A DNA stretch of 64,000 nucleotides from an uncultured Candidatus Saccharibacteria bacterium (GCA_964473815.1 CAYYQK010000001.1:93523-157522); one strand, 5' to 3'. Numbered from the stretch's first letter, positions 46,196 through 55,352 are shown. The notes: generated from the letters alone by a model not told the origin. Program-made: numbers and translations.

Positions 46196-47308
46196 ATGCC
46201 AGCACACTCTGATTTCCCACCGCATTTTACAGGACACTTGTTAGAAAAAATCGGAGGCAATTCCGCTACCATTGTTTTAGATAGTAGCGGAATTTGTATT
46301 TTCGCCAGCAACGCAGTTGACCAGGTTTTAAATCTGCAAACCGATGAACTGCTTGGTCAGAATTTTATCTCCATTGTCCCGCTGCATACTTTAGATGGTC
46401 AATTACCCAGAGAAGGAAGTCATCCCATTGGCAAAGCTTTAGATCATGTTGGATTTGTGCAAACCACTCCTTTTTTTGGTCGACTTGGCCCGGAGGAAAG
46501 TTTACCAACTTTAGCAGTCCGTACTATTCAGATTGTTAACAACGGAAAAATTGATTTTGTAATCGTTCAAATTCGCCAAGCTAAACGTGAGGTGGAAGTA
46601 GGGGAGATGAAATCTCTGTTTTTGTCGTTCGCTGCACATCAATTAAAAACTCCTAGTTCAGTTGTAAAAGGATTTTTGGAATTGATGATGCGCCAGGGTG
46701 AAGCGGCGTATTCTGCGGATCAATGGCACTATATTACTTCAGCGTTTGAGTCTAATGAACAACTGATCGAAGTTTCTAAGTCATTACTGAATATGGCCCG
46801 CCTTGAAGGTGGCTTAATTGAGCCAAGTATTAAGGAGTTTGACCCAGAGCGCGCGTTGCAAAGTAAGATCGCTAGCTTCGCGCCGCTGTATCAGGCCAAA
46901 CGTGTGAGTGTGAATTTATCAGGTTCACAAGAAGGTGATGAACCTTTAAATTTGCTTAGTGATGAAACTTTTTTCTTGGAAATATTTGGAATCATTTTGG
47001 GTAATGCTATTAAGCATTCTCCAATTGGATCAGAAATTACTGTTTTGTGTACTCTTACGCATTCGCAATGCGAAGTCCATGTAATAGACAATGGGCCGGG
47101 AATAGCTGAAGAAATTCGTAAAAAACTTTTTCAACAAGCACAAGAAGCCAGTAAAGACGAAAACAGCCATGGACTTGGATTGTACATGGCTAAGAAGTAT
47201 ATTGCTTTGCTAAATGGCAGCATTGGGATAAATGAAGTTGTCAGCAATACCAGCGATGAGCCAAAAGGAAGCGATTTTTATTTTATTGTGCCGAACCAAG
47301 TTGGCTAG
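46196..47308 (+). CDS. Cytoplasmic PAS-domain sensor histidine kinase
   Basis: H box FAAHQLKTPSSVVKGF. HATPase_c motifs (GNAIKHS, DNGPGIAEE, GLGLYMAKKY). No TM. Confidence 0.8.
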   Translation: MPAHSDFPPHFTGHLLEKIGGNSATIVLDSSGICIFASNAVDQVLNLQTDELLGQNFISIVPLHTLDGQLPREGSHPIGKALDHVGFVQTTPFFGRLGPEESLPTLAVRTIQIVNNGKIDFVIVQIRQAKREVEVGEMKSLFLSFAAHQLKTPSSVVKGFLELMMRQGEAAYSADQWHYITSAFESNEQLIEVSKSLLNMARLEGGLIEPSIKEFDPERALQSKIASFAPLYQAKRVSVNLSGSQEGDEPLNLLSDETFFLEIFGIILGNAIKHSPIGSEITVLCTLTHSQCEVHVIDNGPGIAEEIRKKLFQQAQEASKDENSHGLGLYMAKKYIALLNGSIGINEVVSNTSDEPKGSDFYFIVPNQVG

Positions 47309-48209
47309 GCTGAAAATCCGGATAGCCGTTAAGAAAATCTTTCATACTCATAGTATTTTTTCCAGCAGGTTGCACGGTAATTAATTTCAGAAATGTGTTT
47401 TGGCCGCAGGTAATTGTGTCGCGGTCGTTTTTGCCTGAGTTATTTTCTTCGTGTTCAGTTGCAACCGAGCATTCTAATATTTTAAAGTTTTCACCGCGCC
47501 AAGTTGTATAGATCCCTGGCCACGCAATGTAGGCTCGCCATGAGTTATAAATTTCTTGCGCGCTTTTATTCCAATCAACCAGACCATCTTCTTTTTTTAT
47601 AATTTTGGTTGGTGTGGCCTGGGAGTGATCTTGTTCTTGCGGTTGAATCTGTCCTGACTGATATTTCGGCAATAACTCAATCAATAGTTTTGCAGAAAGG
47701 TCAGCAAGTTTTGGCACAAGTGTTAAGAAAGTATCACTAGGCGCAACATCAATTTCTTGCTGAACTAAAATGGGACCGTGATCTACAAGTTCATCAAGTA
47801 TAAAAATTGTTGTGCCTGTTTTAGCTTCTCCATTTAGTAATGAAAATTGAATTGGCGCTGCCCCGCGGTATTTGGGCAACAAAGAAAAATGCACATTAAT
47901 AGTTTTTAATGGCGGAATCTCTAAAAGTTCAGCTGGTAGAATTTTGCCATAAGAGACAACTATAAAAATATCAGCACCTAACCCGCGCAGAAAATCCATA
48001 AATTCCGAATTGTTTTTAACTTTTTGTGGCTTGTTTACAGGCAATTTTAATTCATCTGCTAAGGCAGAAATAGCTGATTGGGTTAGGATTTGTTTGCGGC
48101 CAACTGGAGCATCTGGACTGGTCACAACCTGCACTATTTCGTGCTGCTCGTTTAAACTGCGCAAAATAGGCAGGCCAACATCTGATGTGCCAAAGAAAAC
48201 AACTTTCAT
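47283..48209 (-). CDS. fmt: Methionyl-tRNA formyltransferase
   Basis: MKVVFFGTSDVGLPILRSL....INVHFSLLPKYRGAAPIQFSLLNGE. Confidence 0.85.
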   Translation of the reverse strand: MKVVFFGTSDVGLPILRSLNEQHEIVQVVTSPDAPVGRKQILTQSAISALADELKLPVNKPQKVKNNSEFMDFLRGLGADIFIVVSYGKILPAELLEIPPLKTINVHFSLLPKYRGAAPIQFSLLNGEAKTGTTIFILDELVDHGPILVQQEIDVAPSDTFLTLVPKLADLSAKLLIELLPKYQSGQIQPQEQDHSQATPTKIIKKEDGLVDWNKSAQEIYNSWRAYIAWPGIYTTWRGENFKILECSVATEHEENNSGKNDRDTITCGQNTFLKLITVQPAGKNTMSMKDFLNGYPDFQPSQLGSAQ

Positions 48210-48775
48210 TATTTTAAATTTGTGCGTTTAAGAATTTGGCGTAATACTTCGGCTTCAATTTCGCAGTCCACCAAAGCTGTGTGGCGACCTTCTGAAACAT
48301 TAATTTTAAAATGTTTCGCTGCTTCATCAAGTCGAAATCCTGAAAAACGTTTTTTGTTTTTCAAAAGTTTTTTCTTAGCCATGTATGTGTAAACCAAAGG
48401 CCAAATGTCGAAGACATGATAGTCAAAAGGATAGCGCATTTTGTTCTCGCGGTATGCCAAGCGCAGCATCAACGTATCTAAAATAGTTCCGTAAGGAGCG
48501 AGAATGACATTATGACCAAAAGTTTTTTCAAACTTTTTTATTGCAGTCTTTAGATCTGGCGCATTTTTTAGCTGATCCCAAGTGATATTATTAACCTTCA
48601 TTGCTTCCGGTTCGCGCAGTTTCCAGCGCTTGGGCTTTATAAAAGTCTCAAAGCGCTTCTTTTCTTTCAAAGTTTTTTTATCGAGCTGAATTGCAGCGAT
48701 TTGAATGAGTTCGTGCTTAAAATAATCTAGGCCAGTGCACTCAACATCGAGCACTAATAAATCTTTGTTAAACAT
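48209..48775 (-). CDS. DEDD-family 3'-5' exonuclease (DnaQ-like)
   Basis: Exo I motif LVLDVECTGLD. Conserved HTALVD near the C-terminus (Exo III YxxxD/H). Confidence 0.65.
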   Translation of the reverse strand: MFNKDLLVLDVECTGLDYFKHELIQIAAIQLDKKTLKEKKRFETFIKPKRWKLREPEAMKVNNITWDQLKNAPDLKTAIKKFEKTFGHNVILAPYGTILDTLMLRLAYRENKMRYPFDYHVFDIWPLVYTYMAKKKLLKNKKRFSGFRLDEAAKHFKINVSEGRHTALVDCEIEAEVLRQILKRTNLK

Positions 48776-48790
48776 AAAATAAATTAATTG

Positions 48791-49324
48791 TTATCCGTTA
48801 ATGATCTTACGAAAAACTTCCGCAGCCAGTCGCGCCTTTTCTAAAGCGTTACTGCGATTTTTAATCTTCAAATGAAAATGCGTAAACAAAGTTTCCAAAG
48901 TCGGCATTTTCTTAACACCGTAATGGAGAGTATATACATAACCAAGCGACCATAAATCTAAAACATGTGAATCATATTCGTAAGGGACAAAAGTTTTTTT
49001 AAACGCTTGCCTTAAAAATTGCACGTTGCTAACAGTGTGTGTTGCGAGGAGGGGGCTGGAGCCAAATTTTGTGGCAAATTGTTTGATGACTTCGTTTAAT
49101 TTCGGACTTTTTTGGAGGGTTTCAAATGGCACTTGCAGTTGAGTGGAATGTTGCGCAATAGTATTGTCCAGGAAGCTGACTTTCACATACGAATTGAAAA
49201 AATCCTTTTCCAGTTGGTTGTCTTTATCTAACAAAACAGCAGACAACTGAATAATGCTATCTCTGTCTAAATTTGGTCCTGATGTTTCAATCTGGAATAA
49301 TAGAATGTCTTTGATGAATTTCAT
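48791..49324 (-). CDS. DEDD-family 3'-5' exonuclease paralog
   Basis: Exo I-like ILLFQIETSGPN. Similar length and arrangement to the adjacent paralog. Confidence 0.6.
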   Translation of the reverse strand: MKFIKDILLFQIETSGPNLDRDSIIQLSAVLLDKDNQLEKDFFNSYVKVSFLDNTIAQHSTQLQVPFETLQKSPKLNEVIKQFATKFGSSPLLATHTVSNVQFLRQAFKKTFVPYEYDSHVLDLWSLGYVYTLHYGVKKMPTLETLFTHFHLKIKNRSNALEKARLAAEVFRKIING

Positions 49325-49932: not shown

Positions 49933-50208
49933 TTATTTCGACTTGTGTTCGTCGTTATATTTCTTAATCAGATAAGAAAATAAGCGACCGCGATTTTGCA
50001 CTTTTGGATTTTCTAAAACTTCACCGGCAATCTTACGCAGGATGTCAGGGGGGTGAGTAACTGCCATTTTTAGATACAATCCAAAATGAGCGCGGTCATT
50101 CATTTGGTCGGCTAATTCATCGGCTAAAACATGCGCAGCCGAGTGTAATTTAGGGTCGCGTTTACGACTAAATTTGTGCCCTGCGGCCACATCTTTTAAC
50201 GAATCCAT
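49933..50208 (-). CDS. Hypothetical small protein
   Basis: ORF of 91 aa co-directional with def/fmt. Confidence 0.35.
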   Translation of the reverse strand: MDSLKDVAAGHKFSRKRDPKLHSAAHVLADELADQMNDRAHFGLYLKMAVTHPPDILRKIAGEVLENPKVQNRGRLFSYLIKKYNDEHKSK

Positions 50209-50254
50209 GGGGTAATTATAAGCTATTTGGAACTAAAATGGAATGAAAATCTGT

Positions 50255-50282
50255 TTGACTCTTTTATCCCCAAGAGTATAAT
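50255..50282 (+). promoter_or_regulatory. Consensus sigma-70 promoter driving the AT-rich six-gene operon
   Basis: TTGACT (50255-50260), 16-nt spacer, TATAAT (50277-50282). Confidence 0.55.
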
Positions 50283-50316
50283 GCTTTTAAAAGCACTATT
50301 TTATTTTTGGTTTAAA

Positions 50317-50898
50317 ATGAGCCTAACTTTCATCGGCGGAATCAACGGAGTGGGCAAGACCAGCGTTGCTGAGTTAATTTGTAATTTAGAGCCCACCTGC
50401 GAGGTTGTGAAAGGTTCTGATGTTATGATGGAGCGTCTCGGAATCAAAGGTGATTACGATGCTTTCCGTTCAATGAATGAAAATATAAAAAATACAGAGT
50501 TTATTAAACTCCTTTCTGAGCTGAAAAACAAACCCTCAAAAACGATAGTAACAGGTCATTTTGTAAAAATTTTGGACGGTACTTTATCACCGAGTTTAGG
50601 GCCTTGGTACGATATTTGTGATAACATAGTCCTTCTAATAAGTAATCCTAAAATGGTTTTAAAGCGCATCCAATCAGATGACATGCTTAATAAACGGACA
50701 AATCGTAGACTATTTTCGGAATACATGAAAGGTCATAATCTACAAGTTGCCTTTCTTAATAATGCACAAGACCTATCAAGGTCCATATTTGAGCATGTCT
50801 CTGAAAACCAAAGTCTGAAAACAGCATCTTTTTATAACCGACAAGGGAACCTGTATGATTGCTCGGCTCAGATAATAAGTTTTATGAATAGTCTATAA
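50317..50898 (+). CDS. P-loop nucleoside/nucleotide kinase-like protein (deoxynucleoside-kinase-like)
   Basis: Walker A IGGINGVGKTSVAELI near the N-terminus. Possible ERS-like MERLG and Arg-rich lid NKRTNRRLF. Start placed at ATG 50317 downstream of the promoter; the ORF track's TTG 50227 would lie upstream of the -35. Confidence 0.5.
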   Translation: MSLTFIGGINGVGKTSVAELICNLEPTCEVVKGSDVMMERLGIKGDYDAFRSMNENIKNTEFIKLLSELKNKPSKTIVTGHFVKILDGTLSPSLGPWYDICDNIVLLISNPKMVLKRIQSDDMLNKRTNRRLFSEYMKGHNLQVAFLNNAQDLSRSIFEHVSENQSLKTASFYNRQGNLYDCSAQIISFMNSL

Positions 50899-50903
50899 AA
50901 CAT

Positions 50904-51380
50904 ATGCGAATTATCAAATTTAAAAACTTGTCACCAAAAGACATTCTTAATATTAAGAATGTCAAATTAGAGTCAAAAAAGTCAAAAACCAATGGCGGCC
51001 ATATGGTAGGTTGTTTAATTGTAAGGGATAATAAAAAAGTTTTTGGTGTGACTTTGGGAAGGAGTAGAGCGATTGGTTCAACATGCGCAGAGCGAATGGC
51101 TTTAGACCAATGGGTTTACAAATACAAGGATTCATTACCAGAGAAAATTTATGTTATAGGAAACTTTAACAGGGAATCATGGAGTGAAGACTATATCACG
51201 ACACCATGTGGTGTGTGTTTGGAAATGTTTTTGGAGTTTATTTTATCGATGAAAGTTGCAAACCTTTCTTTCATTTTTGCAAATTGGAAATTAACCAAAG
51301 CGATGCTAATAAAGTTAGACGAATTGTTCCCCCAATATGGCAAGGGCGGATGGCCATATAAAAAAGGAATAAAGAGATGA
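50904..51380 (+). CDS. Cytidine/deoxycytidylate deaminase-fold zinc enzyme
   Basis: CAERMAL (the H/CAE zinc ligand plus catalytic Glu) and PCGVCLE (PCxxC). Confidence 0.55.
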   Translation: MRIIKFKNLSPKDILNIKNVKLESKKSKTNGGHMVGCLIVRDNKKVFGVTLGRSRAIGSTCAERMALDQWVYKYKDSLPEKIYVIGNFNRESWSEDYITTPCGVCLEMFLEFILSMKVANLSFIFANWKLTKAMLIKLDELFPQYGKGGWPYKKGIKR

Positions 51381-52735
51381 TAGATAATTTTGAATTGTGG
51401 TCTTCTGCCCATGTAAATTTTGCCACGAGTAAAAGAATGTTGGACTTTACAGAATATGGTGAAGATTCTGACACTGACTGGCTTAAATATCAAGTAGATA
51501 AGACTCCTAATGGTAGTTTGCTGATTAATAATGCAATGTTCGATTGTCTTTCTGAAGAGAAAGTTTATTTAGCTCATATAACCAGTCAGTTTAATAAAAT
51601 TAAGGAAACAAAAAAATTACTTTCAAGTAGCGGTTGTCTCATCGGTAGTCTGTATTGCGTACCTGTTATAAAAGATAAAAGTGGTCTAAGATTGCATAAT
51701 TTGGGGCGTTACATATACAAAAATGAACTGCCGGCTTTCAAGAATAACGAAGATGATTCTGATATTCTGTTAATCGAAATTAATAATCCACTTTCTGAGC
51801 GATCTTTATACGGAATAGACTATCTGAAATTGGGTTTAGTTCATTATTCAACTTTTAGACAACTTAATTATCTACTCTCATTGTCAGAGCTGGACTCAAT
51901 AAAAAACAATACAGTTAAAGCAATACAAAAATCTTATGAACTCTTTCTATTATTAGAAAAGAAGCCTATTGTTGACCTTGTTGTCGATTTTGAAAAAATA
52001 TACAGCTATTATCTTGATTGTATTGAGACTTTGCCAATACTGGGTTATTTATTATTTGAGGTTTTATCGGAATATATTGCTTTATATCAGCAAGGGCCAG
52101 AAGTAGATAGATACAAACTTTTCAATGAATTGTATTGTAATAATTTTAAGAATTTAATTTTAGAGATATCTCCTCACTTGACCAAATCATTTAACTTAGG
52201 TTATTTTAATCCGACTTTGTCTGGCATTAAGGCATATCTAGAAAAACTTAATTTATTACAACCCAATGATGAGGTCAGTTTTGAATCTTACTTTTTAAAA
52301 AGAATTAAATATTTAATACGAAATCGTTTTTATAATATTGAATCAAATTATTTCTTTGAAGGATTGCCCTCGAGATTCGAAAATGATTTTGATAAATTAA
52401 GTGTGAGTATGAGACCGTTGGTTGGCCACACTATCCACCGATTAATGCGAAATATGCATCGTTACCCAAATTTCTATTTTTATTTTGATCAGTATAAAGC
52501 TCTGCAAGCCTGGAATCATTGGAATCAGTCCCGTATCCCCATTGTATATAATGCTTTGCTTCCAAAAGGGGAGATAGGAATAAATGCCGCTTACCCCGAT
52601 TTAGAATACAAAATATACAAGACAAAACCTGTGGAACAAAATGGGGATTCATATCTAACTGATTTAGAAGAACTTGATTTAAAACTTCAACCACGCTTGG
52701 CGGAAATAGAAACTTTAATTATGAGAAAAAGATAA
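51377..52735 (+). CDS. Hypothetical 452-aa protein (no recognisable domain)
   Basis: 4-nt overlaps with both neighbours (ATGA). Very AT-rich coding. Confidence 0.45.
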   Translation: MIDNFELWSSAHVNFATSKRMLDFTEYGEDSDTDWLKYQVDKTPNGSLLINNAMFDCLSEEKVYLAHITSQFNKIKETKKLLSSSGCLIGSLYCVPVIKDKSGLRLHNLGRYIYKNELPAFKNNEDDSDILLIEINNPLSERSLYGIDYLKLGLVHYSTFRQLNYLLSLSELDSIKNNTVKAIQKSYELFLLLEKKPIVDLVVDFEKIYSYYLDCIETLPILGYLLFEVLSEYIALYQQGPEVDRYKLFNELYCNNFKNLILEISPHLTKSFNLGYFNPTLSGIKAYLEKLNLLQPNDEVSFESYFLKRIKYLIRNRFYNIESNYFFEGLPSRFENDFDKLSVSMRPLVGHTIHRLMRNMHRYPNFYFYFDQYKALQAWNHWNQSRIPIVYNALLPKGEIGINAAYPDLEYKIYKTKPVEQNGDSYLTDLEELDLKLQPRLAEIETLIMRKR

Positions 52736-52739
52736 AAAT

Positions 52740-53477
52740 ATGGCAATTGAGAATGAATTGGAGATTTTGAAAAATATTTCTGACAGGATACTCCGATCCG
52801 AAGAAGTAAATAGTGGATTCCGCAATTGCTTAGTGCAGCTGGAAAAAGAAATAAAAGCTATTGAGTCCCATATAAAAAATTCCAATAATTTTGAAAAAGA
52901 CTTTTTAAAAGTAAAAGATTTGCGGAAGCTTCAAATTGGCGGAGGTAAAAGAACTTTGGAAGGGTTTATAAATGTTGATATATTCCAGCCAGCTGATATT
53001 GTTTGGGATTGTAGAAGCGGCCTTCCATTCAAAGAAGATGCTTTTGACTTTATTTTTACAGAACACTTTTTAGAGCATGTAGACTACCCTGTTTCAGCTT
53101 TGAAAATCGTAAATGAATGCTATAGAGTATTATCCAAGAGCGGAGAGCTTTATATTTCGTTACCTGATGCAGGTAAAGTCATTGATGCCTATAATAGAGA
53201 TGACAAAAAGTATCTTACAGAACTAAATAATGAATGTTATGTAAAAAGAAATCCACCAGTAGTCATTAACGGGAATATAGACTATGTCAATTATCTTTTC
53301 AGGGATCAAATTGAAAATACCAAATATACCATACATCACTGGGCCTATGATTTTGAATCCTTGAGAAACATTTTGCAAAGGGCTGGGTTTTCTAATGTAC
53401 AGAGAACAACATTGATTCCAGAATATTGCAACCCCGCTCGAGAGTTTTATAGTTTATATATAAAAGCAATTAAATAA
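52740..53477 (+). CDS. Class I SAM-dependent methyltransferase
   Basis: Motif I LQIGGGKRTLEGFINVD. Post-I acidic residue and FDFIFTEHFLEHV (motif II/III). Confidence 0.6.
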   Translation: MAIENELEILKNISDRILRSEEVNSGFRNCLVQLEKEIKAIESHIKNSNNFEKDFLKVKDLRKLQIGGGKRTLEGFINVDIFQPADIVWDCRSGLPFKEDAFDFIFTEHFLEHVDYPVSALKIVNECYRVLSKSGELYISLPDAGKVIDAYNRDDKKYLTELNNECYVKRNPPVVINGNIDYVNYLFRDQIENTKYTIHHWAYDFESLRNILQRAGFSNVQRTTLIPEYCNPAREFYSLYIKAIK

Positions 53478-53484
53478 TATTTAT

Positions 53485-54018
53485 ATGTACGAAATAGAAT
53501 TTAGAGGTAAAATCTCTGAAGAAAAGTATAAGTCCACTATAGATTTTTTGAATATTAATGGGAAAAATCTTGGGGAAGATGACAAAGAGGTTTACTATTA
53601 CATCTTTAAAGATAAATTGTTAAAGCTAGTTAATAATATTTCAAAAGGGAATGCAAAAGTATCTCTTAAGCTGAACCGTATAGGAGATGGTGCTGTTTTT
53701 GAAGAAATGGAATTCTTTTTTGATCAAAATGATTTTGAGAAGGCAGCTAGTCTGTTTAATAAACTTGATCTTAACGCAAAGGTTATGACTGGCCCACAAA
53801 AAAGAGTTAATTATGAATATAAGGGTTGCGAAATTGCGATGAAGTTTAGTGATGTTTGGGAATACCATTTTGAAATCGAAAAAGTAGTAGACTCGACAGA
53901 AAATCAAGAAAAAGTGGAGTCAGAGATCCGCAGTGTGGCACAAGAATTAGGCCTAGAAATAATGTCCGAAGAAGATTTGAAGAATTTTGTCGAAAATGTT
54001 GAAAGCAAAATCAAATGA
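53485..54018 (+). CDS. CYTH-like (triphosphate tunnel metalloenzyme / CyaB-like) protein
   Basis: N-terminal YEIEFRGKI resembles the ExExK signature. C-terminal WEYHFEIEKV resembles the terminal ExE strand. About 177 aa, the typical CYTH size. Confidence 0.4.
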   Translation: MYEIEFRGKISEEKYKSTIDFLNINGKNLGEDDKEVYYYIFKDKLLKLVNNISKGNAKVSLKLNRIGDGAVFEEMEFFFDQNDFEKAASLFNKLDLNAKVMTGPQKRVNYEYKGCEIAMKFSDVWEYHFEIEKVVDSTENQEKVESEIRSVAQELGLEIMSEEDLKNFVENVESKIK

Positions 54019-54752
54019 GTTTGCAAACTGACTTAGCGAATAAAATTCATCCAAAGTACCAAAATTTGGACAGGGAATCTCTTGATTTCATTTGCTCCAA
54101 CATGGACATTTCAATATTGAAAATTCAGAACTGGAATGACAATTTATTTGAATTTATTTTTAATAATTCATCCTGGCAGGATATAGAGCTAAGTTGGTAT
54201 GATGATAAACAAATTGCCGAAGGTATACATGGGCTAAGGCATGCAATGAGGGTGGCAATTAACATTGGCTTCCTAACTTTTGGAAATGATAAGTACAAAG
54301 AGATTACGAAACCCTTAATATGGGCCGCTTTAAAACATGATTGTTCAAGAAAGAATGATAACGAAGATCTGGAGCATGGTCTAAATTCCGCGAGGTCAAT
54401 CATGTCGAATTCTCATAACGTTCCGAAGGATATCTTACCTTATTTGGATATGATTGCTTTTTCTGTTGAAAACCATAATGTACCTTACGCAGAGGTGGAA
54501 AAAAATAAAAGATACTTGAAAAATAAAGAAGTGACAGATCTGTTAAAGACTGCCGATGCCTTAGATAGATATAGGTTGCCCAAAATTAAATGGTGGCCTA
54601 ACACAGATTATTTAAAAATTATTCCAAATAAAGCTCAGTTATCTTTTGCTTATTATTTGATGGATTATAGCGAGAGAGAATATTTAAATTTAAAGAATGA
54701 TAAACAATCTATAATATTTGCTTTAAAAAAAATGCGGGACTCTATGAAATAG
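54015..54752 (+). CDS. HD-domain phosphohydrolase
   Basis: H...HxxRV (IHGLRHAMRVAINIGF), the HD dyad in ALKHDCSR, and a downstream Asp in KTADALDRYR. Confidence 0.5.
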   Translation: MSLQTDLANKIHPKYQNLDRESLDFICSNMDISILKIQNWNDNLFEFIFNNSSWQDIELSWYDDKQIAEGIHGLRHAMRVAINIGFLTFGNDKYKEITKPLIWAALKHDCSRKNDNEDLEHGLNSARSIMSNSHNVPKDILPYLDMIAFSVENHNVPYAEVEKNKRYLKNKEVTDLLKTADALDRYRLPKIKWWPNTDYLKIIPNKAQLSFAYYLMDYSEREYLNLKNDKQSIIFALKKMRDSMK

Positions 54753-54790
54753 AGCCCCGGCGTATCTTATGGTTTACGAGATCTTACGAA

Positions 54791-55261
54791 CTAACTGATT
54801 TTGTCTATGGTCAAGTCCTCTCCCTTAAAAGAAAATTCATCACCTTCTTCCAGGCCCATTATTAATTTGGCAAGCCCGGAGTCGTAGGAGATGGTTTGTA
54901 TGGGATGCTCAGCGAATATTTGGTAACTGCCTATGCGGAAGGACTTACCATTACTCAATTTTACTGTAGCACCTAATACTACTTTATCAAAAGGACCTTT
55001 CCCGTGGACAACAGAGGAATGCATTAGGATGTCACGCAAGTTACGCAATCTTCCTAGTGCAACGTTTCTTTCAATCGTGATCGTCTCCTGCACGGCGTCA
55101 TCATGGCCAAAGTTTTCAGTGCTTTGGGCATTTGCTATGCCTTGCTGGCGCCCTAGTTCGAATATACTCTCGCGTAATTGCTCCACTTCATGCTGGAGGA
55201 TTTTAAAGTCCTCTGGTAAAAAGTAGTATTTTTTCAAAGCATTACCTCCTTGGAATACCAT
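54791..55261 (-). CDS. greA: GreA/GreB-family transcription elongation factor
   Basis: N-terminal coiled coil YFLPEDFKILQHEVEQLRE. C-terminal FKBP-like domain ending ...SYDSGLAKLIMGLEEGDEFSF. Start chosen at MVFQ (156 aa); the ORF track extends to TTG 55321. Confidence 0.55.
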   Translation of the reverse strand: MVFQGGNALKKYYFLPEDFKILQHEVEQLRESIFELGRQQGIANAQSTENFGHDDAVQETITIERNVALGRLRNLRDILMHSSVVHGKGPFDKVVLGATVKLSNGKSFRIGSYQIFAEHPIQTISYDSGLAKLIMGLEEGDEFSFKGEDLTIDKIS

Positions 55262-55352
55262 CCACACTTGGAATGTGGTAAATATTTTACCATAAAACAA
55301 AGATTTTGGCAAGTTAAACAATTTCTCCTAAATTGCGCTATAATTCTTAGGT

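Follow-up and report, generated by a model that had tools for sequence, protein, structure and literature searches.

A six-gene operon of nucleotide-processing enzymes in a Saccharibacteria genome and its occurrence in ultra-small bacteria and archaea and in Streptomyces

Introduction

How should a block of six closely packed genes for nucleotide-processing enzymes, built around a large protein of no recognisable family, be understood? The block occupies positions 50255-54752 of a 64,000-nucleotide stretch of DNA from an uncultured Candidatus Saccharibacteria bacterium (GCA_964473815.1, CAYYQK010000001.1:93523-157522), which was analysed as a whole and is called the window below. A sequence-only reading had listed four roles for such a gene set (production of a modified nucleotide, antiphage defence, RNA-end repair, nucleoside salvage) and regarded the combination as a system that could not be named. 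No published description of this system was found in the literature, in keeping with the latter view, and among the four roles the modified-nucleotide pathway fits best, whereas RNA repair of the Pnkp/Hen1 type is weakened and plain salvage is a poor fit. The block is conserved as a unit, being found again in ultra-small bacteria and archaea as well as in Streptomyces. We further propose, with a confidence that stays a little short of even, that it is a self-contained pathway, spread horizontally, which converts free cytidine-type nucleotides to a modified nucleotide.

Organization of the locus

The six open reading frames (O1 to O6) all lie on the plus strand and are spaced 5, -4 (ATGA overlap), 4, 7 and -4 nt, so that ORF calling bore out the gaps of 4-7 nt and ATGA overlaps reported earlier. 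The G+C content of 50255-54752 is 0.330, as compared to 0.407 elsewhere in the window, and no other 4.5-kb segment of the window is as low (mean of the segments 0.402, sd 0.027). The compositional contrast noted before thus holds, although the value is 33% rather than about 30%.

The promoter TTGACT-16-TATAAT that had been read ahead of the operon (50255..50282, plus strand) was recovered as the top promoter-like match of the region, agreeing with the sigma-70-like consensus at 11 of 12 positions; its function is putative. A scan for such promoters gave 34 sites, where shuffled sequences would yield 22 +/- 4.6, and therefore the consensus match by itself is weak evidence. At the other end of the block, a terminator-like hairpin followed by a T run (54735..54759, minus strand; 11-pair stem with 6 G-C pairs) overlaps the 3' end of O6 and, as a consensus match, may serve a GreA-like gene that lies beyond it. 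Marks of an insertion, such as a tRNA, an Rfam family or repeats on the flanks, were not found at the block.

Distribution and conservation

The protein at the centre of the operon, O3 (51377..52735, plus strand; 452 aa), belongs to an unnamed enzyme family, which falls into some 300 clusters when grouped at 50% identity, and is further called X. It occurs in 160 of the 185,579 species of the genome collection and in 73 metagenome loci. Gene neighbourhoods were compared in a low-G+C set of 29 non-redundant loci with full flanks and in an actinobacterial (high-G+C) set of 58 loci. The low-G+C carriers are for the most part CPR bacteria or DPANN archaea, and the same core is shared by Streptomyces and Kitasatospora. 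More than 130 non-redundant loci, drawn from three lineages, hold the same gene families around X, arranged in several orders, and this shuffling of gene order between lineages points to selection on co-occurrence rather than to inherited synteny. The suggestion that the six genes form one functional unit of nucleotide-processing enzymes is thereby strengthened, the block being co-conserved in three unrelated lineages, and horizontal acquisition, which had been inferred from composition and packing, is still judged probable.

The fixed core consists of X together with an HD enzyme (28/29 low-G+C and 57/58 actinobacterial loci), a CYTH protein (29/29 and 56/58) and an enzyme of one-carbon transfer, namely a methyltransferase of the O4 type (24/29 and 56/58) or a thymidylate synthase (TS)-like protein (9/29 low-G+C loci). 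The low-G+C loci carry O4 only in 20 cases, the TS-like gene only in 5, and both in 4; none has neither. Around this core there is a variable shell that is made up of nucleotide-interconverting enzymes only: NMP kinase, cytidine deaminase (CDA), NDK, NUDIX and dCTP-deaminase-like proteins. The variable partners, the TS-like proteins included, all work on free nucleotides, for the most part those of cytosine. The kinase is present in 20/29 low-G+C loci and in 0/58 actinobacterial loci, which makes O1 an accessory component, and the CDA is found in 13/29 low-G+C loci. In the actinobacterial set, an NDK paralogue and a 99-aa protein each occur in 56 loci, and two NUDIX genes in 51 and 48. The TS-like partners (n = 23) score above the cut-off of PF00303 and have retained the catalytic Cys (22/23) and Arg166 (23/23), and all 23 carry Asp at the position of ThyA Asn177, the numbering being that of the E. 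coli ThyA reference sequence. Asp at this site is the cytosine-specific signature in the thymidylate synthase/dCMP hydroxymethylase family, Asn being that for uracil. TS-like, NDK and NUDIX genes are all missing from the window itself, and thus part of the argument for a pathway rests on the relatives. Sugar-directed partners that occur in relatives are a TylF-type O-methyltransferase, a NodU-type carbamoyltransferase, a Gfo/Idh/MocA oxidoreductase, an epimerase/dehydratase, GT4, HAD and an APH-type kinase.

The block was earlier taken as a unit of six genes. These are real and co-conserved, but the unit should be extended with a seventh gene beyond 54752, which encodes a divergent GreA/Rnk-like factor (54791..55267, minus strand, convergent with the operon). 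Its best GreA model gives 32 bits against a cut-off of 145, and a relative, L016, scores highest on the Rnk model. The gene follows the block in all loci with the order kinase-CDA-X-methyltransferase-CYTH-HD, with conservation of the tip motif QSTENFGHDDACQE, and is found in 11/29 low-G+C loci; the actinobacterial loci lack it, as do most of the other low-G+C arrangements. Probably it belongs to the transferred unit. The remaining flanking genes are absent at all other X loci compared. In the window these are housekeeping genes (def, fmt, gltX), as one would expect of a chance neighbourhood of unrelated housekeeping functions in which X would be one of the common conserved hypotheticals, but the recurrence in more than 130 loci, the fusions of HD and X described below and the flanks that do not recur refute this explanation, to which we attach hardly any probability.

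The kinase, deaminase, methyltransferase and CYTH protein

O1 (50317..50898, plus strand; 193 aa) is a P-loop protein that resembles NMP kinases. The mechanical ORF opens at TTG 50227 and another longer one at 50281; since both overlap the promoter hexamers, ATG 50317 is the likely start, and from there the P-loop covers residues 8-15, as in NMP kinases. The protein matches AAA_17 (E 7e-6), and its family profile (A5), with G8, N10, G13, K14, H81, D121 and R130 invariant, matches archaeal-type adenylate kinases (1nks, E 6e-9), so the call of a P-loop kinase was right, but not the likeness to deoxynucleoside kinases. O2 (50904..51380, plus strand; 158 aa) had been recognised as a CDA-fold zinc enzyme, with which both PF00383 (32.3 bits, cut-off 25) and the match of profile A6 to tetrameric cytidine deaminases (1r5t, E 3e-11) agree; the profile also matches blasticidin-S deaminase weakly. 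The CAE and PCGVC motifs, R53 and R55 are invariant. Had these been scattered housekeeping salvage genes, the earlier interpretation would fall; what was found is a co-conserved block with scores far under the NCBIfam equivalog cut-offs, for example 27.5 bits against 113.65 for the housekeeping cytidine deaminase, and 14-18 bits against 152-155 for the adenylate kinase and putative kinase equivalogs.

The class I SAM methyltransferase predicted as the fourth gene product, O4 (52740..53477, plus strand; 245 aa), indeed scores above the cut-off of PF08241 (32.5 against 21.2 bits). Its profile (A4) finds generic class I methyltransferases only, and many of its 37 invariant columns fall within a family-specific C-terminal half. 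O5 (53485..54018, plus strand; 177 aa) by itself gives a weak CYTH match (E 0.012) and a match to cyaB TIGR00318 that is under the cut-off (E 4.8e-5). The family profile (A3) matches the CYTH structures 2een, 1yem and 2dc4 (3e-7 to 5e-6), and the invariant residues E3, E5, R7, K34, K47, K62, E74, R107, K120, E130 and E132 include the ExExK-type N-terminus (with R7 replacing Lys), the basic residues and the C-terminal acidic pair of a triphosphate-tunnel enzyme.

Protein X and its HD partner

The 452-aa protein had been described as lacking any recognisable motif, and it has no match in Pfam, NCBIfam, PHROG or PADLOC; nor was a solved structural counterpart found. The ART, RES, PARP, DarT and Tpt1 families were not among the matches of 41 X members at E values up to 5, and X shows neither a match to any mART model nor an R-S-E motif. 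Structurally there is a weak resemblance to ADP-ribosyltransferase-fold enzymes, the closest of which are toxins of the RES and MbcT types. Of 201 X sequences, 100% keep H67 and 99% keep Y93 and E399, and the three residues are located in or beside predicted beta strands (62-69, 91-100 and 400-403); E134, the first candidate for a catalytic Glu, is not conserved. An Arg-rich helix would be suited to polyphosphate binding. The H67-Y93-E399 set, a candidate counterpart of the H-Y-E (or R-S-E) triad that lines the NAD+ pocket in the ART superfamily, this helix and the weak ART likeness are the reasons for proposing ribosyl transfer by X.

O6 (54015..54752, plus strand; 245 aa) is the obligate partner of X. 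It has the H...HD...D metal-binding motif and the all-helical fold of an HD-superfamily phosphohydrolase or phosphodiesterase, and like the CYTH assignment of O5 the HD assignment made from motifs held in profile and structure comparison. The fold of O6 is closest to that of the phosphodiesterases (PDEs) of the Legionella effectors SdeA/SidE, but only 2/36 homologues touch PF12252 (SidE_PDE), at E ~0.03, and a ubiquitin-related partner was not found. Since the metal-binding HD residues are retained, the likeness to SidE may reflect only shared extra helices. In 86 of 115 HD-bearing loci the HD gene immediately precedes X, and fusions exist in both orders (HD-X in P0259 and P0282, X-HD in P0319). 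This adjacency and these fusions indicate that HD and X work together.

Proposed pathway

We propose that X catalyzes the committed, family-specific step, in which the N-glycosidic bond of NAD+ or another nucleotide would be broken and an (ADP-)ribosyl group would be moved onto an acceptor nucleotide. The HD enzyme could next trim a phosphodiester or pyrophosphate link, in the way that SidE phosphodiesterases cut ADP-ribose down to phosphoribose, while the CYTH protein would handle the triphosphate end and O4 may methylate the product, possibly at a sugar hydroxyl. In the window version, the CDA would supply or convert the cytosine moiety and the kinase would re-phosphorylate the product. Because a GreA-like factor accompanies the block, an action of the product on transcription is suggested; the product could be a nucleotide analogue, with the factor relieving or mediating its effect on the RNA polymerase of the cell itself. 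The system shows no evident gene for a sensor, an effector or resistance, and thus any purpose assigned to the product is a guess.

Another role would be salvage in reduced genomes, by phosphoribosylation of cytosine or uracil from NAD+ independent of PRPP, followed by pyrophosphate cleavage and the kinase reaction. An ART-like enzyme and a PDE could in principle make an NMP from a base and NAD+; kinase, CDA, NDK and NUDIX are salvage-type activities, and the CPR bacteria and DPANN archaea that make up most of the low-G+C carriers are generally without de novo nucleotide synthesis. However, Streptomyces and Kitasatospora have a full nucleotide metabolism and carry the same core, the occurrence of X in so few species does not suit a general salvage solution, and the obligatory methyltransferase or TS-like enzyme is not needed for salvage. 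With X left unexplained and all components scoring far below housekeeping equivalogs, this role is improbable.

Comparison with known systems

The conversion of free cytidine-type nucleotides that we favour shares its enzyme logic with phage pathways to replaced or hypermodified pyrimidines, as in T4 (dCTPase, dCMP hydroxymethylase, dNMP kinase and host NDK) and in the related clusters for thymidine hypermodification. Relatives of the window operon provide an NTP hydrolase (CYTH, HD, NUDIX), NMP kinase, NDK, a deaminase and a C5 one-carbon transferase with the cytosine-type Asp. In contrast to the phage pathways, the core lacks a polymerase or DNA glycosyltransferase, X is absent from phage records, a SAM methyltransferase takes the place of the TS-like enzyme in the window, and the HD-X pair has no counterpart among those pathways. 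Cytidine-centred chemistry is likewise found in producers of nucleoside analogues, such as the prokaryotic viperins with CMP kinases, which form ddhCTP. Partners in relatives correspond in type to the oxidoreductase, HD phosphohydrolase and kinase of cordycepin synthesis (Cns1-3), O-methyl- and carbamoyltransferases fit the same comparison, and the weak similarity of O2 to blasticidin-S deaminase recalls clusters for cytosine-type nucleoside antibiotics (MilA CMP hydroxymethylase, blasticidin-S deaminase). The core differs from such producers by lacking a radical-SAM enzyme, a CMP N-glycosidase of known type and peptide or sugar assembly genes, and CPR bacteria and DPANN archaea, in which the system occurs, are not noted for secondary metabolism.

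The SidE effectors (mART + PDE), in which ADP-ribosylation is followed by trimming to a phosphoribosyl link, are different in that X lacks the R-S-E motif and mART match and is weakly ART-like, O6 keeps canonical HD metal ligands, ubiquitin-related or DUB domains are absent, nucleotide enzymes are encoded by the partner genes and none of the carriers is an intracellular pathogen. SidE phosphodiesterases process an ADP-ribosylated macromolecule, and it is conceivable, if unlikely, that X puts an (ADP-)ribosyl group on a protein or on the end or a base of a nucleic acid, with the HD enzyme removing the adduct or trimming it to a phosphoribosyl mark. The CYTH protein would then be an RNA 5'-triphosphatase, an activity known in this superfamily, and the methyltransferase would cap or protect the end, on the model of Pnkp/Hen1, Tpt1 or mRNA capping. 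The ART-like signal of X would suit this reading, since ART-fold enzymes that act on nucleic acids include Tpt1 and DarT; the linked GreA-like gene could tie the system to nascent transcripts, NUDIX partners could be decapping enzymes, and an RNase_T exonuclease gene adjoins X on a Nonomuraea plasmid. Yet a ligase or nucleotidyltransferase is absent, including the covalent nucleotidyltransferase of mRNA capping (ligase/capping-enzyme fold, KxDG motif), none of the components showed a nucleic-acid-binding domain, and the variable partners (CDA, TS-like, NDK, NMP kinase, dCTP-deaminase-like and sugar-nucleotide enzymes) act on free nucleotides, not on a polymer. Pnkp/Hen1 systems also combine a kinase, phosphohydrolase and methyltransferase in one operon, but membership was rejected: the obligatory ligase is missing from every locus, the kinase is accessory (absent from 58/58 actinobacterial and 9/29 low-G+C loci), the phosphoesterase is of the HD instead of the calcineurin type, and the methyltransferase is generic.

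The closest ART-fold matches of X, being toxins, together with the low G+C content of the window block and the sporadic, horizontal-looking spread over CPR bacteria, DPANN archaea and Actinobacteria, could also fit a conflict module. On infection by a phage, X would then modify an essential target or deplete NAD+ or nucleotides; the HD enzyme would reverse or restrain it, and the other enzymes, among them the dCTP-deaminase-like proteins, would deplete or reshape the pyrimidine nucleotide pool. Paralogues on plasmids and a relaxase-like gene (see below) point the same way. The antiphage role proposed earlier was checked against PADLOC-DB 2.0.0 (2023 models), in which the six proteins gave unrelated partial matches only (best E 2e-4 to 1e-2), and a known antiphage system is rejected for these models. 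X occurs in 0 of 50,697 phage records and on just 2 IMG/VR contigs, the neighbours in the window and in most CPR loci are housekeeping genes, and it would be unusual for a toxin and its antidote to be fused both ways round. The set of genes, which is constant in 56-57 of 58 actinobacterial loci, looks like that of a metabolic operon, which argues against a conflict module; we consider such a module doubtful, and the pathway to a modified nucleotide remains our preferred explanation.

Distant paralogues of X are present on actinobacterial linear plasmids, among transposases and beside a GT4 gene that also matches the 'GT4-conflict' family; a Pycsar effector is encoded some 5 kb away. A plasmid paralogue cluster contains two dCTP-deaminase-like genes and a CDA-like gene. 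On the side of Streptomyces, a gene that was named relaxase-like by eye from its sequence lies near the cluster in 16 loci.

Organization of the operon

Six genes lie between 50317 and 54752 in the ORF listing of the window, all on the plus strand, and encode in this order a kinase (O1), a protein of the cytidine-deaminase fold (CDA, O2), a central protein of 452 aa, here called X (O3, 51377-52735), a methyltransferase (O4), a CYTH protein (O5) and an HD protein (O6). They are spaced by 5, −4, 4, 7 and −4 nt, both negative values being ATGA overlaps, and the tight packing noticed in the sequence-only reading is thus borne out. The strongest promoter-like site of the region, TTGACT-16-TATAAT at 50255-50282, agrees with the consensus at 11 of 12 positions; it is the textbook promoter of the earlier proposal, but such sites are frequent in this A+T-rich DNA (34 seen versus 22 expected). 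If the promoter is real, the start of O1 is the ATG at 50317, because longer ORFs beginning at 50227 or 50281 overlap the promoter hexamers; from this start, the P-loop is found at residues 8-15. The G+C content of the block is 33.0%, not the approximately 30% claimed earlier, but the block does have the lowest value among all 4.5-kb windows (mean 40.2%, sd 2.7), the remaining window having 40.7%. A search for mobile-element marks at the block borders yielded no tRNA, Rfam family, or direct or inverted flanking repeats.

Conservation and distribution of the unit

X has 234 homologues at 90% clustering and 301 representatives at 50%. It was found in 160 of 185,579 species genomes and on 73 metagenome contigs. 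The CPR carriers include Portnoy-, Staskawicz-, Woese-, Shapiro-, Sung-, Nomura- and Saccharibacteria as well as Paceibacterota, and the DPANN carriers are one Parvarchaeota MAG and one Nanoarchaeota MAG. Many Streptomyces and Kitasatospora strains possess the gene, as do Catellatospora, Allorhizocola, Carbonactinospora and Peterkaempfera, and a few carriers fall outside these three groups. A phage origin of X is rejected, with no matches among 50,697 phage records and just two IMG/VR contigs, of which the X proteins show about 35% identity to that of the window, comparable with the Streptomyces copies.

Partner genes were counted with HMMs built from the window proteins and iterated across all fetched loci, dropping identical loci and requiring at least 3.5 kb on either side of X, which left 29 low-G+C loci (mainly CPR and DPANN) and 58 high-G+C loci (actinobacterial). 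The CYTH gene was near X in 29/29 and 56/58 of these, respectively, the HD gene in 28/29 and 57/58, and the O4 methyltransferase in 24/29 and 56/58. Other partners occur with one set of loci: the kinase (20/29), CDA (13/29), a GreA-like gene (11/29) and a thymidylate-synthase-like (TS-like) gene (9/29) were present at low-G+C loci and at none of the 58 high-G+C loci. A nucleoside diphosphate kinase (NDK) paralogue (3/29 versus 56/58), a 99-aa protein (2/29 versus 56/58) and two divergent NUDIX genes (one type in 3/29, versus 51/58 and 48/58) are characteristic of the high-G+C loci. In the 56 actinobacterial loci that have it, the 99-aa gene is always situated between the 169-aa NDK paralogue and the CYTH gene; its product (e.g. 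L001, 6155-6454; also L010 and L012) has a weak TPR_12 match only.

Gene order varies between lineages. With K for kinase, C for CDA, M for the O4 methyltransferase, Y for CYTH, H for HD, T for TS-like, g for the convergent GreA-like gene and m for a second small methyltransferase, the arrangements KCXMYH-g (the window type), YHXKM, KYCHXM, YHXTYK and XMHmY occur, and Actinobacteria have CYTH-HD-X-MTase. That content remains constant while order shuffles argues for functional coupling, and a chance neighbourhood of genes is refuted. The genes form a conserved, horizontally distributed unit with an HD-X pair at its centre, in which CYTH and a one-carbon transferase are obligatory: among the 29 low-G+C loci, 20 have only O4, five only the TS-like gene, four both and none neither. 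The proposal of a single, probably horizontally acquired functional unit is upheld by the recurrence of these partners around X in shuffled orders in CPR, DPANN and Actinobacteria. In 16 Streptomyces loci (e.g. L070, 1384-3099), a gene about 5.7 kb upstream of X encodes a protein of about 570 aa that, judged by eye, resembles a relaxase or mobilisation protein, which suggests that some actinobacterial copies reside on integrative elements.

The GreA-like gene and other neighbours

A convergent GreA-like gene (54791-55267, minus strand) comes after the block at all window-type loci, whose host organisms range from 33 to 56% G+C. Since it tracks the block in these loci, unlike the other flanking genes, it is counted as the seventh member of the unit. 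It is unlikely to be an orthodox GreA housekeeping gene, in view of its co-transfer with the block and a GreA model score of 32 bits versus a cut-off of 145; a relative scores best with the Rnk model, and an acidic tip motif, QSTENFGHDDACQE, is conserved.

The genes def and fmt, two RNase_T genes, a 91-aa ORF, CAP and WecG were found at no other X locus. Because none of them recurs, a functional link of the block to the RNase_T genes, def, fmt and the 91-aa ORF is rejected. The two RNase_T-family genes (48209-49324, minus strand) encode tandem DnaQ-like 3'-5' exonuclease paralogues of 188 and 177 aa and are placed between def and fmt, in an operon divergent from the block. The 91-aa ORF (49933-50208, minus strand), which has no Pfam or NCBIfam match, is immediately upstream of def and divergent from the operon promoter. 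Further away, a histidine-kinase gene (46196-47308, plus strand) and fmt (47283-48209, minus strand) have convergent 3' ends that overlap by 26 nt.

The HD-X pair

No Pfam domain or informative name was found among the X homologues, and X itself had no match in Pfam, NCBIfam, PADLOC or PHROGs. Searching Pfam with 41 aligned members at E values up to 5 produced no consistent family match, a profile search of the PDB returned noise only, and Foldseek found nothing in the PDB; the earlier impression of a protein with no recognisable motif thus holds for all these collections. An AlphaFold model of X is confident (pLDDT 88.7, pTM 0.91) and predicts an N-terminal alpha/beta part (residues ~60-150), a helical part (150-385) and a C-terminal beta part (389-441). 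In 201 diverse members, residues conserved to at least 96% are H67 (100%), S84, G86, Y93 (99%), H107-N108, Y149, E228, E251, K258, K397 and E399 (99%). In the model, H67 and Y93 of the N-terminal and E399 of the C-terminal beta part are in or beside predicted strands, which is the arrangement expected of the H-Y-E core of an ADP-ribosyltransferase (ART) split by a large insert. An ART-like reading of X is plausible but unproven. For the catalytic glutamate, E134 was dropped because about 20% of the 201 sequences have Lys, Arg or His there, and E399 was taken as the candidate.

O6 gave no domain match by itself, but an HD domain was matched by 25 of 36 homologues, its profile matches the HD hydrolase 2pq7, and H72, H108-D109, H154 and D184 are invariant. 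Judged by these sequence features, O6 can be assigned to the HD superfamily, in agreement with the phosphohydrolase call made from motifs. Its predicted structure (pLDDT 94.8) comes closest to the phosphodiesterase (PDE) domains found in SidE-family proteins of Legionella. These effectors use an ART domain to ADP-ribosylate ubiquitin, after which the PDE domain cuts the pyrophosphate so that a phosphoribosyl link remains. The strongest functional link of the system is that between HD and X: of the 115 loci with an HD gene, 86 have it immediately upstream of X, and an O6-type HD domain and X are fused in one protein in either order (HD-X in P0259 and P0282, X-HD in P0319). The fusions occur in the contexts NUDIX-[HD-X]-APH-type kinase and dTMP-kinase-like-NUDIX-Gfo/Idh/MocA-[X-HD]-methyltransferase.

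Accompanying enzymes

O1 is a P-loop kinase (AAA_17, E 7e-6), as was supposed, but not one resembling deoxynucleoside kinases: its family profile matches structures of archaeal-type adenylate kinases (1nks, E 6e-9), and it is therefore regarded as an NMP-kinase-like enzyme. The other motif-based calls were correct. O2 scores above the threshold that Pfam sets for the cytidine/dCMP deaminase zinc region, and the structures matched by its profile are tetrameric cytidine deaminases (1r5t, E 3e-11) and, with a weak score, blasticidin-S deaminase; the CAE and PCGVC motifs and the arginines R53 and R55 are invariant. O4 exceeds the Methyltransf_11 cut-off and resembles generic class I enzymes only, its C-terminal half being well conserved and family-specific. 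O5 scores weakly by itself (CYTH, E 0.012; cyaB, E 4.8e-5), and its profile matches the CYTH structures 2een, 1yem and 2dc4, with an invariant starting E-x-E-x-R, basic residues and C-terminal E-x-E. One rival explanation is that the block serves nucleotide salvage; its proteins score far under the housekeeping equivalog cut-offs.

The variable partners in relatives are all enzymes of free nucleotides or sugar moieties, and they constitute a nucleotide-interconverting shell around the HD-X core that is biased to cytosine. TS-family genes follow X in many CPR loci and nearly exclude CDA (in the low-G+C loci, CDA only 12, TS-like only 8, both 1). As compared to a ThyA reference sequence, the TS-like proteins have the catalytic Cys in 22/23, Arg166 in 23/23 and Asp at the position of E. 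coli ThyA Asn177 in 23/23. Asp at this position is a signature of a cytosine rather than uracil substrate, as in dCMP hydroxymethylase. By these residues, the TS-like proteins may represent a new cytosine-nucleotide C5-modifying subfamily. They are short (~211-216 aa in L029, L066, L088, L012 and about 19 more low-G+C loci) and carry an aromatic residue in place of ThyA Glu58. Further partners include NDK, NUDIX hydrolases, a TylF-type O-methyltransferase, a NodU-type carbamoyltransferase and a second small methyltransferase.

Distant X paralogues (~30% identity) occur on actinobacterial linear plasmids. On that of Nonomuraea sp. NBC_00507 (NZ_CP107854.1, 107837-125111), the HD-X pair is inside one same-strand run with two dCTP-deaminase-like genes, a CDA-like gene, and genes for a methyltransferase, an epimerase/dehydratase, a Gfo/Idh/MocA oxidoreductase, a GT4 protein also matching 'GT4-conflict', a HAD protein and an RNase_T exonuclease. 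The exonuclease gene follows X, and a gene annotated as Pycsar effector is present about 5 kb downstream. A single ORF of 4266 aa (P0352; L168, 237-13037, Logan SRR22388275) has an X-like domain at residues 3591-3926, next to epimerase, ROK kinase, dehydroquinate-synthase-like sugar-phosphate cyclase, HAD and PRTase domains; it represents a giant multi-enzyme protein or else an anomaly of assembly or gene calling.

Possible function and significance

We infer that the unit turns a cytidine-type nucleotide into a modified nucleotide. X would carry out a glycosidic transfer, ribosyl or ADP-ribosyl, after which HD could trim a phosphodiester or pyrophosphate link, CYTH would handle the triphosphate end and O4 would methylate the product; in the window version, CDA may adjust the base and the kinase restore phosphates. 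SidE-type ART-PDE chemistry, on which the analogy draws, modifies a protein, and a rival to the nucleotide pathway is that the unit modifies or repairs nucleic acids or proteins; the variable partners act on free nucleotides or sugars. That a GreA-like factor travels with the block is a hint that the product may act on RNA polymerase. In a far-reaching version, which we consider improbable, X would found a new family of ART-derived ribosyl transferases with a large helical insert that, with a SidE-like HD protein, CYTH and an O-methyltransferase, makes an unprecedented (phospho)ribosylated, methylated cytidine nucleotide. This product would act on RNA polymerase in concert with the GreA-like protein as a dedicated secondary-channel factor. 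It would be a new alarmone, or else a transcription poison, antiviral or antagonistic, against which the producer has protection built in, and the pathway would have spread between CPR, DPANN and Actinobacteria.

A toxin/antidote or defence module is a further rival; no component of the unit matched a PADLOC 2023 defence model, which argues against a known defence system. In full-text literature searches, neither the gene combination nor the X family turned up in any published description, in line with the original view that it is not a system that can be named, and CYTH goes unmentioned in a review of NAD-ADPr systems. The system shares its logic with SidE mART-PDE chemistry, with phage pathways for replaced pyrimidines and with nucleoside-analogue producers, but is a member of none of these. 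On the grounds of these searches, the lack of phage records and analogies that stop short of membership, it is rated as without a described counterpart, with the caveats that its chemistry is inferred and that more recent libraries may include it.

If the proposed pathway is correct, it would constitute a new branch of nucleotide chemistry around a central family that lacks a known relative or solved fold, common to ultra-small symbiotic CPR bacteria, ultra-small DPANN archaea and antibiotic-producing Streptomyces. It would provide a new route to modified nucleotides, possibly one in which a ribosyl group is transferred to a nucleotide in an NAD+-dependent step and the adduct is then trimmed as by SidE enzymes, and a new candidate source of natural nucleoside analogues, which are of interest as antivirals and antibiotics, as well as a rare clue to the genes in which genome-reduced symbionts invest. 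The question is directly testable, since some carriers can be cultured, among them Peterkaempfera bronchialis, Streptomyces zinciresistens K42 and Kitasatospora cystarginea.
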